A stretch of 9,617 nucleotides of DNA from Candidatus Iainarchaeum sp. (GTDB lineage Archaea; Iainarchaeota; Iainarchaeia; Iainarchaeales; CSSED10-239), in NCBI GenBank assembly GCA_003559395.1, contig PWLL01000059.1, positions 1-9,617 of the forward strand, written 5' to 3'. The position numbers and the translations under genes are program-made. Shown one piece after another: positions 5,308 to 6,852 of this stretch; positions within the stretch are counted from its first letter, which is position 1; every line of letters starts with the position of its first letter. The notes beneath the pieces were generated by a model. The model had not been told where the DNA came from and did no database searches. It worked only from the letters and a program-made list of their open reading frames with translations.

Positions 5308-6852
5308 TTATTTATCAACAAGCGTTGCTTTTTTTATATCTAAAACACCACAATTGTCATTAATCATTTTTATTTTTTTTTCTATAATATTTATTTTTTT
5401 ATTAAAAAGAGGGCTATCCAAAACAACAGACTCAAACTCTCCACCCTCTCCAGCGATGTTAATCTTGTATTTTTTTGTAATTTCTTTTAGTTTTATAAAA
5501 TCTTGGTTAGTTATTGTTTTTCCCAACCATTCTTTTGTTAAACCATAAGCTGCAATTTTATCAAAAATAAATCTAAAGTTATTATCTAAAAGAATAGACA
5601 TTTCTTTTTCTTGAGACATATGCCATAGAGGAGAAAAACAAGTAATATTTAGTTTTTTACAAATTGTTTCTATTCTTTTTTTTTGATAATTACTAAATAA
5701 TGCACCAGTAACTATGCCTTCTATCCTATAGTTGATAATTGCTTTTTTTATTAATATTTCAAGATCTTTTAGTTCTTTTTCTTTTACACCATTTGTTTTT
5801 TTATAAAGTATAGGAATATCTAAAGCTTCTGATTGTAACTCAAGTATGTTTTTTTTAGGTCTTTGATACATGTAAGAAAAATCATCTTTAGGAAGAACAG
5901 ATAACAAACAACAAACATCTATATCCTTTTTTTTAGACAAAAACAAAGCAAGATTAGAATCTTTTCCTCCAGAAAAAAGACAACCATATCTTTTGGGTTT
6001 TTTATTCTTAAGATGCAAAAAATATTCTTGTTTTGTTTTAAAACCACTTGCTTTCATTAATTTTGTTAAAGCTTTTTCTGAATTGCTACCATATTGTGCT
6101 GCTTTTTTTTTAAGATCATAAACTTCTTTAGGAAGTCCATATTCTTTTAACAACTCTCTAACAATTATCTTGTTTCTAGAAGTTGTTTTTTTAAAAGAAT
6201 CTTTCAAAGACAAACCATAAGCAATAACTTCATCATTAATAAAAGGAGAAAAAAGCTTAACTTCAAATCTTTTTGCAAGTCTTTTATCTCTTAACAAATC
6301 TCTTTTTTTAATTTTGTTTAAAAGCTCAATAGATTTTTTATAGTAATCTTTAGATATAAGATTAAACTTATTATATCCGCAAAAAAGCTCATCAGCACCA
6401 GAACCACAAAACAGAGTTTTTATGTTGTCGTCTTTGGCTTCTCTTAAGGCAATATAAAGAGGCACAGCCACGCCTATTTGGACCGGGTCTGTTGTTTTTG
6501 TTGTTTTTATTATGTCTGGCAACACTTCTTCTAACTCGTCATCATAAACAAACCCTTCATGTAGGTTGATGTCTACTAGTAAATTTGCTGAAAATCTTGC
6601 AGAAGAAAGATCTTTTGGTTCATTCTTTCTTTTAACATACCCAAAATAGGCTTTAAAATCTATACCAAGGTCCTTAAGGATAACAGAAACAAGAACAGAA
6701 TCAACACCCCCACTAAAAAGAACTCCAACAGGCTCTTCTATTTTTTTGTGTATGATTGCTTTTTTTAGTTTTTGTCTTATTTGTTGGACGGCATCTTTAA
6801 GACTTTCATTATTTTGTATAATCTCCTCTTTCTCAGGTATAACCATTTTCAT
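5308..6852 (-). CDS. Fusion of two PP-loop ATP-pyrophosphatase domains. The N-terminal part is an asparagine-synthetase-like synthetase domain with no glutaminase domain (about 5992-6852). The C-terminal part is a Dph6/MJ0570-type diphthine-ammonia ligase domain (about 5308-5991).
   Basis: Domain 1: VLFSGGVDS (SGGVDS = 6697-6714), LFCGSGADELFCGYNKF, F.PF.......Y......FK.

Domain 2: CLFSGGKDSNLAL (SGGKDS = 5956-5973), SYMYQ, LQSEALDIP, GIVTGALFSNYQKKRIE..C..L.....SPLW, GEGGEFES.VLD.PLF.

No Met or stop lies between the domains. The linker is HLKNKKPKRYG. Confidence 0.8.
   Translation of the reverse strand: MKMVIPEKEEIIQNNESLKDAVQQIRQKLKKAIIHKKIEEPVGVLFSGGVDSVLVSVILKDLGIDFKAYFGYVKRKNEPKDLSSARFSANLLVDINLHEGFVYDDELEEVLPDIIKTTKTTDPVQIGVAVPLYIALREAKDDNIKTLFCGSGADELFCGYNKFNLISKDYYKKSIELLNKIKKRDLLRDKRLAKRFEVKLFSPFINDEVIAYGLSLKDSFKKTTSRNKIIVRELLKEYGLPKEVYDLKKKAAQYGSNSEKALTKLMKASGFKTKQEYFLHLKNKKPKRYGCLFSGGKDSNLALFLSKKKDIDVCCLLSVLPKDDFSYMYQRPKKNILELQSEALDIPILYKKTNGVKEKELKDLEILIKKAIINYRIEGIVTGALFSNYQKKRIETICKKLNITCFSPLWHMSQEKEMSILLDNNFRFIFDKIAAYGLTKEWLGKTITNQDFIKLKEITKKYKINIAGEGGEFESVVLDSPLFNKKINIIEKKIKMINDNCGVLDIKKATLVDK

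Follow-up and report, generated by a model that had tools for sequence, protein, structure and literature searches.

What does a gene do that joins, in one continuous chain, two PP-loop domains from different families of amidating enzymes? The question is raised by a 9,617-nucleotide contig of Candidatus Iainarchaeum sp. (PWLL01000059.1, assembly GCA_003559395.1; "the window" refers here to this whole stretch), which encodes on its minus strand an asparagine synthetase B (AsnB)-like domain followed by a Dph6 (diphthine-ammonia ligase) domain. The protein is a new glutaminase-less member of a known, biochemically uncharacterized fusion family, and it is the product of a housekeeping gene, well conserved, in an archaeon of the DPANN type; its relatives are already called diphthine-ammonia ligase in public annotation. 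The explanation that we favor, and regard as likely, is that the C-terminal half (C-half) is a diphthamide ligase, that the N-terminal half (N-half) is an adenylating domain with an intact ATP site that is not an AsnB, and that both serve a shared process. The features on which the following analysis relies are listed below.

5308-6852, minus strand: AsnB-like/Dph6 fusion gene, a single open reading frame (ORF) of 514 amino acids with an ATG start and its stop codon at 5308-5310
5998-6795, minus strand: AsnB-superfamily PP-loop domain, synthetase type, residues ~20-285 (PF00733, alignment to 1ct9, Foldseek)
6697-6714, minus strand: PP-loop 1, SGGVDS, residues 47-52 (translation)
6373-6405, minus strand: GSGADELFCGY, residues 150-160, with the S151 codon at 6400-6402 (translation)
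6250-6294, minus strand: decayed ammonia-tunnel mouth, residues 187-201, LRDKRLAKRFEVKLF (conservation in glutaminase-containing relatives, mapping to human asparagine synthetase)
6085-6108, minus strand: clade signature KKAAQYGS, residues 249-256, in which K249 corresponds to AsnB K449 (A1 alignment)
5311-5991, minus strand: Dph6 (diphthine-ammonia ligase) domain, residues 288-514 (PF01902, TIGR03679, Foldseek)
5956-5973, minus strand: PP-loop 2, SGGKDS, residues 294-299 (translation)
5866-5877, minus strand: SYMY motif (translation)
5683-5688, minus strand: YQ motif (translation)
5431-5448, minus strand: EGGEFE, residues 469-474, the acidic motif of the Dph6 signature (translation and PF0828 alignment)
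6855-8153, minus strand: peptidase U32 family gene (PF01136, E value of 2e-75), the upstream neighbor, not part of the system

The single 514-residue ORF and its two PP-loops lie exactly where the sequence-only reading of the window had placed them (ORF list and translation). Its view of the gene as a true in-frame fusion is borne out by a continuous frame and by a junction that is colinear with those of 198 other fused homologs (separate database records and GTDB genomes). The protein is 100% identical to a database entry of 512 residues that begins at the second Met (P0001), and the join is equally continuous in four relatives with 66 to 71% identity (P0002 to P0005), which were deposited independently in NCBI, JGI, and Logan. 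In an AlphaFold2 model built from 83 homologs, the inter-domain junction comprises only ~5 residues, between a helix (residues 274 to 282) and a strand (residues 288 to 292), and the predicted local distance difference test score (pLDDT) is ~88 for residues 281 to 290. It could be supposed that the fusion arose artificially from adjacent AsnS-like and dph6 genes, through a mistake in sequencing or assembly that erased a stop codon or changed the frame. A natural split version in which the two genes overlap by 4 nt does exist in another genome (L088, described below), the contig is a low-GC fragment of a metagenome-assembled genome (GC fraction of 0.20 to 0.31 across the whole window, i.e., very AT rich), and it carries one odd truncated SHMT/DHFR chimera. 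Against these points stand the continuous frame, the recurrence of the join in the four close relatives, in the 198 other fusion proteins, and in 78 of 80 GTDB loci, and the colinear, well-modeled junction, which together leave a merging error with a negligible probability.

The fusion is also not a novelty. A protein search scored 8,000 candidates, of which 1,049 had E values of ≤1e-5, and both PF00733 and PF01902 were found in all of the 120 best matches, which were listed. When the 80 top-ranking species-level loci of GTDB were examined, 78 proved to encode both domains in one ORF. These loci are distributed among DPANN-type lineages (Woesearchaeota, Nanoarchaeota, Iainarchaeota, Micrarchaeota, Altiarchaeota, and Nanohaloarchaea), Syntrophoarchaeum, ANME-1/Methanophagales, and Methanosarcinales (e.g., Methanolobus bombayensis DSM 7082 and Methanohalophilus). 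About half of the 120 best matches are 660 to 740 residues long and start with MCG, MCS, or MCA (i.e., with the Cys1 of a class II glutaminase), followed by GATase_6/7 domains. In 2012, de Crécy-Lagard et al. reported fusions of AsnB (GAT-II plus Asn_synthase) with DUF71 from Methanohalophilus mahii, Methanosalsum zhilinae, and Candidatus Nanosalinarum (Biol Direct; PMC3541065). Those authors proposed that the fused GAT-II domain provides NH3 to DUF71, and a reviewer of that paper asked which PP-loop takes the ammonia and what the role of the AsnB-like one might be (PMC3541065). The window protein has the same order, an AsnB-like PP-loop domain and then DUF71/Dph6 in one chain, and it shares with these fusions both the clade signature and the lack of the AsnB catalytic Glu; it is 37 to 47% identical to the full-length relatives and clusters with them both in a tree and in the search.

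The architecture is therefore common in small-genome archaea, abundant in DPANN and methanogen-related archaea, and known since 2012. The sequence-only reading had called it unusual, which is contradicted by more than 1,000 homologs with the join and by the GTDB loci; it had taken archaeal Dph6 to be a stand-alone protein, which the fusions described in 2012 show not always to be so. Of the eventuality that it had itself raised, an architecture both common and already characterized, one part is correct, since the fusion is common and described, and the other is not, since it is not biochemically characterized; no biochemical study of an AsnB-like/Dph6 fusion was found in the searchable literature. 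The relatives are annotated by NCBI as diphthine--ammonia ligase and often by JGI as asparagine synthase (glutamine-hydrolysing). One of the fusion-family matches (L081, positions 1881 to 2606; Candidatus Argoarchaeum ethanivorans) is a stand-alone Dph6 that is 47% identical to the C-half of the window protein. There is no AsnB-like ORF upstream of it on its 3.5-kb contig, and the AsnB-like module may here have been lost completely or become a separate gene.

Both family assignments made from the sequence were confirmed by domain scans. For the C-half, the Pfam model PF01902 (Diphthami_syn_2) matched residues 291 to 510 with an E value of 1.1e-56 (192 bits versus a cutoff of 23.2), and the NCBIfam model TIGR03679 (Dph6_archaeal) scored 244.2 bits, above its equivalog cutoff of 197.3. 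The nearest solved sequences are PH1257 (2d13; E value of 9e-47) and PF0828 (3rjz; E value of 2e-45), and the modeled C-half superposes on PF0828 (3rk1) and PH1257 (2d13) with target-normalized template modeling (TM) scores of 0.94 to 0.96 and root mean square deviations of 1.5 to 1.7 Å (Foldseek). Nine residues of PF0828 (S44, Y45, E78, Y103, Q104, A149, E183, E186, and E188) separate Dph6 orthologs from the B12-salvage subgroup of DUF71 (PMC3541065). All of them are matched in the alignment, by S326, Y327, E360, Y389, Q390, A435, E469, E472, and E474, respectively. Most of these signature residues are at least 97% conserved in the fusion family; the acidic residues of EGGEFE (equivalent to PF0828 E183, E186, and E188) and S294, G296, K297, and D298 of PP-loop 2 are invariant in the family alignment. 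By family membership, the C-half is thus assigned as a diphthine-ammonia ligase.

The C-half is a full-length match to the stand-alone archaeal Dph6 proteins PH1257 (2d13) and PF0828 (3rjz, 3rk0, and 3rk1), with the same PP-loop, signature, and fold and 33 to 38% identity (Foldseek). These proteins have ~220 to 230 residues and no N-terminal partner, whereas in the window protein a 287-residue AsnB-like module precedes the Dph6 domain across the ~5-residue linker. Eukaryotic Dph6 (yeast YLR143W) instead bears two C-terminal RidA/YjgF-like domains behind DUF71, as the sequence-only reading had correctly stated (PMC3541065); the accessory module of the window protein is of the AsnB PP-loop type, N-terminal, and unrelated. 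What the two fusions share is an accessory module with a presumed relation to ammonia handling (PMC3541065 and PMC3585130).

The closest long relative of the locus lies on a 193-kb contig (L002, GCA_015657915.1), which encodes a fusion protein 71% identical to that of the window (P0005). The two loci are syntenic, sharing an MS-channel-like gene, a methyltransferase gene, the U32 gene, the fusion gene, a kinase-dCMP deaminase gene, and DtdA. The EF-2 encoded on the same contig carries HEDAIHRGPAQ, i.e., the diphthamide histidine. Its gene lies ~5 kb from the fusion gene, a proximity that is probably local synteny. No conserved neighborhood with dph2, dph5, or EF-2 was seen in four further loci (L083 to L086), and the absence of clustering with dph2 and dph5 was also reported in 2012 (PMC3541065).

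The N-half belongs to the AsnB superfamily. PF00733 (Asn_synthase) matched it with an E value of 4.2e-31 (109 bits versus a gathering score of 21), with the best stretch at residues 25 to 164 and a second stretch further on; at E values such as those of the two Pfam models, chance matches are excluded. Residues 209 to 444 of E. coli AsnB (1ct9) align to it with an E value of 1e-11, as does human asparagine synthetase (ASNS; E value of ~1e-11), and the modeled domain superposes over ~295 columns on 1ct9, human ASNS, CarA/carbapenam synthetase, and beta-lactam synthetase (Foldseek). By sequence, its ATP site is complete. The AsnB residues that contact ATP or pyrophosphate (D238, D279, G347, K429, and K449) correspond to D51, D81, G150, K228, and K249, which are at least 97% conserved, and the same level of conservation in the 199 fusion proteins holds for S47, G49, D51, and S52 of PP-loop 1 and for K249, A251, Q253, Y254, G255, and S256 of the clade signature. 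The clade occurs in four architectures (AsnS-like alone, GAT plus AsnS-like, the bi-domain fusion, and the tri-domain fusion, where GAT is the class II glutaminase domain). In all four, PP-loop 1 and the equivalents of AsnB D238/S239, D279, G347, D351, E352, Y357, D384, R387, K429, and K449 are near-invariant.

Could the N-half then be a true ammonia-dependent asparagine synthetase that supplies Asn, next to an independent Dph6, with the fusion serving coexpression only? AsnB can use free ammonia, and AsnB and ASNS are the best solved relatives of this Pfam Asn_synthase domain. With those enzymes (1ct9, 6gq3, and 8sue) the N-half shares the synthetase fold, the PP-loop, and the equivalents of D279, D351, E352, D384, R387, K429, and K449. 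Of these conserved residues, D351, E352, and D384 correspond to ASNS D367, E368, and D400, residues of the pocket or charged cluster in which the amino group of the substrate or inhibitor is bound, and R387 corresponds to ASNS R403, which touches the carboxylate of beta-aspartyl-AMP. Furthermore, the stand-alone and GAT plus AsnS-like relatives are annotated as asparagine synthase. Several points speak against such an activity. The position of the catalytic E348 of E. coli AsnB is occupied by S151 in the window protein, and no member of the clade has Glu there; the residue is L, M, S, or Q, with Leu in most relatives. In human ASNS, substitutions of the equivalent residue (E364A and E364Q) are inactive, and ammonia-dependent activity is abolished (PMC6748925). 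The N-half scored 112.4 bits with TIGR01536 (asparagine synthase), below the equivalog cutoff of 267.1, and even full-length relatives scored 235 to 279 bits, with one of six passing, whereas all six passed the Dph6 model. The arginine of the AsnB TTIR motif aligns to a near-invariant Gly (G127); according to mutagenesis work on E. coli AsnB, this arginine is essential for beta-aspartyl-AMP formation. Finally, repeated fusion to, overlap with, and proximity to dph6 would be hard to explain for an unrelated enzyme. Because both the Glu at the E348 position and the TTIR arginine are missing, the N-half is probably not an asparagine synthetase, and we consider two independent enzymes of this kind quite improbable. 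The missing Glu likewise argues against the JGI label "asparagine synthase," which has consequences for metabolic reconstructions of archaea, those of the DPANN group included.

Given that the full ATP, pyrophosphate, and Mg site is kept, the N-half is probably still an active adenylating enzyme that would bind ATP and use a carboxylate other than free aspartate. In addition to its lack of an Ntn (N-terminal nucleophile) glutaminase domain, it differs from AsnB and ASNS in the E348-to-Ser and TTIR Arg-to-Gly replacements, in its size (~265 versus ~320 residues), and in falling below the TIGR01536 cutoff. The AsnB-superfamily scaffold can adenylate carboxylates other than aspartate, as beta-lactam and carbapenam synthetases illustrate. 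These two enzymes and TsnB9 are structural neighbors of the N-half (15 to 21% identity) that also lack the AsnB Glu; they keep an inactive or altered N-terminal domain, act in secondary metabolism, and to our knowledge have no link to Dph6. The chemistry shared by the two superfamilies of the fusion, adenylation of a carboxylate followed by amidation, had been put forward in the sequence-only reading and is counted as supported. That reading had further suggested that the protein may carry out two successive or alternative amidations or that one half may be regulatory; on this point, the data argue for an N-half that is no asparagine synthetase yet retains its ATP site.

The absence of a glutaminase from the window protein, asserted earlier from the sequence, proved real. 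No GAT domain was detected with Pfam or NCBIfam, and because the U32 gene stops 2 nt before the fusion ATG on the same strand, there is no room for such a domain and a start-codon problem does not account for its absence. The earlier impression that this is an oddity did not hold up. We classified 199 fusion proteins with custom hidden Markov models (HMMs) for the GAT, AsnS-like, and Dph6 domains; GAT with Cys1 was found in 110, a GAT remnant without a recognizable Cys1 in 20, and no GAT in 69, so that about a third resemble the window protein in this respect. Forms from Nanohaloarchaea start with MCGIAG, i.e., a compact GAT with Cys1. A neighbor-joining tree of the shared region, combined with Fitch parsimony, placed a GAT-containing form at the root and required at least eight changes from full to none, with the window protein in a 26-member GAT-less block together with P0002 to P0007 and L002. 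In 80 GTDB loci, the custom HMMs revealed no split GAT gene beside the GAT-less fusions. Two candidates were rejected, i.e., a frameshifted GAT (L025) and an unrelated GAT protein (L052). With a GAT-containing root, a position inside the GAT-less block, and no separate GAT gene alongside, the window protein is best described as a secondary glutaminase-less derivative.

Loss of the glutaminase was accompanied by a specific change in the N-half. Ten columns (R36, E119, K125, R162, E183, Y187, D190, M194, E199, and R201, in the numbering of the window protein) are 93 to 99% conserved in forms with GAT and essentially free in forms without it. Among the positions of the tunnel mouth, Y187, D190, M194, E199, and R201 are 95 to 99% conserved and L200 is 91% conserved in GAT-containing relatives, and all are free in GAT-less ones. 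No columns conserved only in GAT-less forms were found in the fusion alignment. Seven positions (R36, E119, K125, Y187, D190, E199, and R201) are at least 93% conserved only with GAT, whether Dph6 is present or not; these columns therefore track the glutaminase and not Dph6. D190 maps to E. coli N389 and human ASNS D405, E199 to E398 and E414, and L200 to human L415. In ASNS, the gate of the tunnel is Arg-142, which forms salt bridges with D405 and E414, and L415 is part of the tunnel lining (bioRxiv 10.1101/2023.05.16.541009). The window protein has K190, K199, and L200 at these positions, and its tunnel mouth has therefore decayed. In the GAT-containing relatives, the conserved mouth indicates that glutamine-derived ammonia would enter the AsnB-like site, as in AsnB. 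The window protein thus departs from the fusions described in 2012 both in lacking GAT-II and in its decayed tunnel mouth, and without GAT-II the proposed supply of glutamine-derived ammonia cannot operate there.

In full-length relatives, of which P0012, P0028, and P0063 are examples, the GAT domain keeps Cys1, Asn74, Glu76, and Asp98. In the same domains, Gly75 is replaced by Cys and AsnB Arg49, which binds the glutamine carboxylate, by Leu within a conserved H-x-L-H-S-V-V. Glutamine binding by these domains may differ from that in AsnB.

A different view of the glutaminase loss is that the N-half is a noncatalytic relic of a glutamine-dependent ammonia supplier, surviving as an ATP-binding regulatory, dimerization, or EF-2-docking module. 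The 2012 idea of a GAT-II domain supplying NH3 to DUF71, the absence of the catalytic Glu, and a series of decay among the matches, from full GAT through remnant and none to stand-alone Dph6 (L081), are all in keeping with it. Divergence points the same way: mean pairwise identities are 0.498 (N-half) and 0.538 (Dph6) in GAT-containing forms and 0.455 and 0.532 in GAT-less forms, so that the AsnS-like/Dph6 identity ratio is 0.855 without GAT versus 0.925 with it, and comparison of the window protein with its closest relatives gives 63 to 68% identity over the N-half and 71 to 73% over the Dph6 half. These differences suggest that the N-half is slightly more relaxed after GAT loss, yet it is clearly constrained. 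The PP-loop, the D279, K429, and K449 equivalents, and AxQYGS remain at least 97% conserved after the loss, and only tunnel and interface columns relax. The tunnel gate and lining columns kept in GAT forms are moreover consistent with delivery into the AsnB-like site, and 72 representative clusters consist of a free ~270-residue domain with neither GAT nor Dph6 to serve, which argues for an activity of its own. We therefore consider a noncatalytic relic unlikely and retain an adenylating N-half as the preferred explanation.

Free-standing relatives were identified by searching residues 1 to 287 against 1.84 billion representatives. The 143 best new matches were classified as AsnS-like alone (72), GAT plus AsnS-like without Dph6 (48), tri-domain (20), and bi-domain (3). 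The 72 stand-alone forms are 255 to 310 residues long, start with Met, and end 0 to 6 residues past the domain with a conserved K..YL.SL tail; termini are natural in both the AsnS-like-alone and the GAT plus AsnS-like forms. Three stand-alone genes (P0121 in L087, P0133 in L089, and P0139 in L090) are bounded by unrelated genes and are genuinely free-standing. The K-x-A-x-Q-Y-G-S motif after the K449 equivalent and the lack of Glu at E348 are common to all four architectures. Judged by these sequences, the N-half clade is autonomous and not a mere appendage of Dph6. No NCBIfam model is dedicated to the stand-alone clade, which gave only subthreshold AsnB-type matches. Other fusion partners were considered and rejected, as the long representatives were tri-domain fragments or, in one case, a probable merged SMC gene call.

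Some unfused members of the clade adjoin dph6. In a Woesearchaeota genome (L088), an AsnB-like gene (5001 to 5846) overlaps a separate dph6 gene (5843 to 6532) by 4 nt. Among 80 metagenome loci seeded with the stand-alone alignment, with the KKAAQYGS motif also used as a scan pattern, the domain is fused to Dph6 in 22 and unfused in 58. Six of these 58 have a dph6 gene within the fetched flank, and in two (L158 and L168) it follows immediately downstream with the same orientation; by chance, a flank would be expected to contain dph6 in ~1% of cases if the gene has one copy and the genome ~1 Mb. These observations provide moderate support for a link to Dph6 beyond covalent fusion. Additionally, the wider clade includes ~480-residue proteins annotated as asparagine synthase, e.g., P0315 (Thermococcus sp. 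M36), P0310 (Methanosphaera), P0339 (Bathyarchaeota), and P0320 (Wukongarchaeota). P0315 and P0310 contain SGQGADELF.GY, with Gln where AsnB has its catalytic Glu; the motif search gave no match in P0339 and P0320. The Cys1 nucleophile is missing in P0315, P0339, and P0320, the N termini of which read MIAGG.., MGAIA.., and MSYIGG.., respectively. The "asparagine synthase" label of this archaeal clade may be wrong.

These data allow the reviewer's question of 2012 on the AsnB-like PP-loop to be better framed, i.e., in terms of an ATP site that stays intact after GAT loss, free-standing forms, and repeated linkage to dph6, and further in terms of the conserved ammonia-tunnel mouth in GAT-containing forms. 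The chief remaining interest is the role of the AsnB-like PP-loop clade.

Some observations weigh against a shared process in which the C-half makes diphthamide. The tunnel of the GAT forms leads to the AsnB-like site and not evidently to the Dph6 site. No dph2, dph5, or EF-2 gene is present on the 9.6-kb contig (ORF list and Pfam), and according to a 2021 review, archaeal dph6 assignments still await experimental confirmation (PMC8305020). The other 52 of the 58 unfused AsnS-like genes have no dph6 in the fetched flank, and the wider clade also occurs in archaea with a stand-alone Dph6 (e.g., Thermococcus) and in an Asgard lineage; the N-half may therefore act independently of EF-2. The relative orientation of the two domains is not confidently predicted, the predicted TM score (pTM) of the AlphaFold2 model being 0.66 despite a mean pLDDT of 93. 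As for the history of the glutaminase, the neighbor-joining tree is rough, and artifacts of start-codon choice or of the HMMs may account for some of the GAT remnants.

We nevertheless favor the following scheme. In the C-half, ATP would be bound at SGGKDS, the diphthine carboxylate on the conserved His of EF-2 would be adenylated, and free ammonia would displace AMP to yield diphthamide. The N-half, as a compact AsnB-superfamily PP-loop domain of the K-x-A-x-Q-Y-G-S clade, would adenylate some carboxylate and likewise use free ammonia. The ancestor would have had an N-terminal class II glutaminase feeding ammonia by a tunnel into the AsnB-like site. In the lineage of the window protein, the glutaminase would have been deleted and the tunnel-mouth residues would have decayed, so that both halves would have to use free ammonia. 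The modules recur together, whether fused, encoded by overlapping genes, or encoded close to each other, which implies that they would act in one process, presumably the formation of diphthamide on EF-2, to which the contribution of the N-half is inferred.

A more specific proposal is that the AsnB-like "QYGS" module is an unrecognized second enzyme in the maturation of EF-2/diphthamide in archaea, or in the amidation of another translation factor, i.e., an ATP-dependent amidoligase working with Dph6 that different lineages have free-standing, GAT-fused, or Dph6-fused. We offer it tentatively, as a conjecture of low probability. If it were true, many archaeal "asparagine synthase" genes would be misnamed, and diphthamide formation in the archaea concerned would involve an additional step or partner.

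The remaining genes of the window provided some minor observations. The U32 gene adjoins the fusion gene upstream both in the window and in L002 (8765 to 9997), and a U32 gene lies within a few kilobases in L004, L005, L022, L027, L058, L088 (1 to 1012), and L091. We considered U32 adjacency as a functional link and rejected it; it was found in only 5 of 80 GTDB loci (~6%), mostly in the clade of the window protein, and is probably local synteny. The SHMT/DHFR chimera (2715 to 3374, plus strand) is an in-frame ORF of 219 residues that combines the N-terminal half of SHMT (profile positions 7 to 195 of 399) with the C-terminal third of DHFR_1 (87 to 143 of 159). Neither part is complete, and the ORF looks like a deletion remnant of two folate genes or an assembly join; L002 has no counterpart within the fetched ±10 kb. 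Next to DtdA, a 401-residue ORF (201 to 1406, plus strand) matched the DXP reductoisomerase C-terminal domain (PF13288) only below threshold (23 bits versus a cutoff of 27). Its counterpart in L002 has 370 residues and no Pfam match, and this is an uncharacterized conserved gene. Finally, a 363-residue ORF (4215 to 5306, plus strand) combines a P-loop kinase-like domain (AAA_17/AAA_18, with a weak CoaE match) with a dCMP/cytidine deaminase domain, a fusion that is kept in L002 (11508 to 12599).

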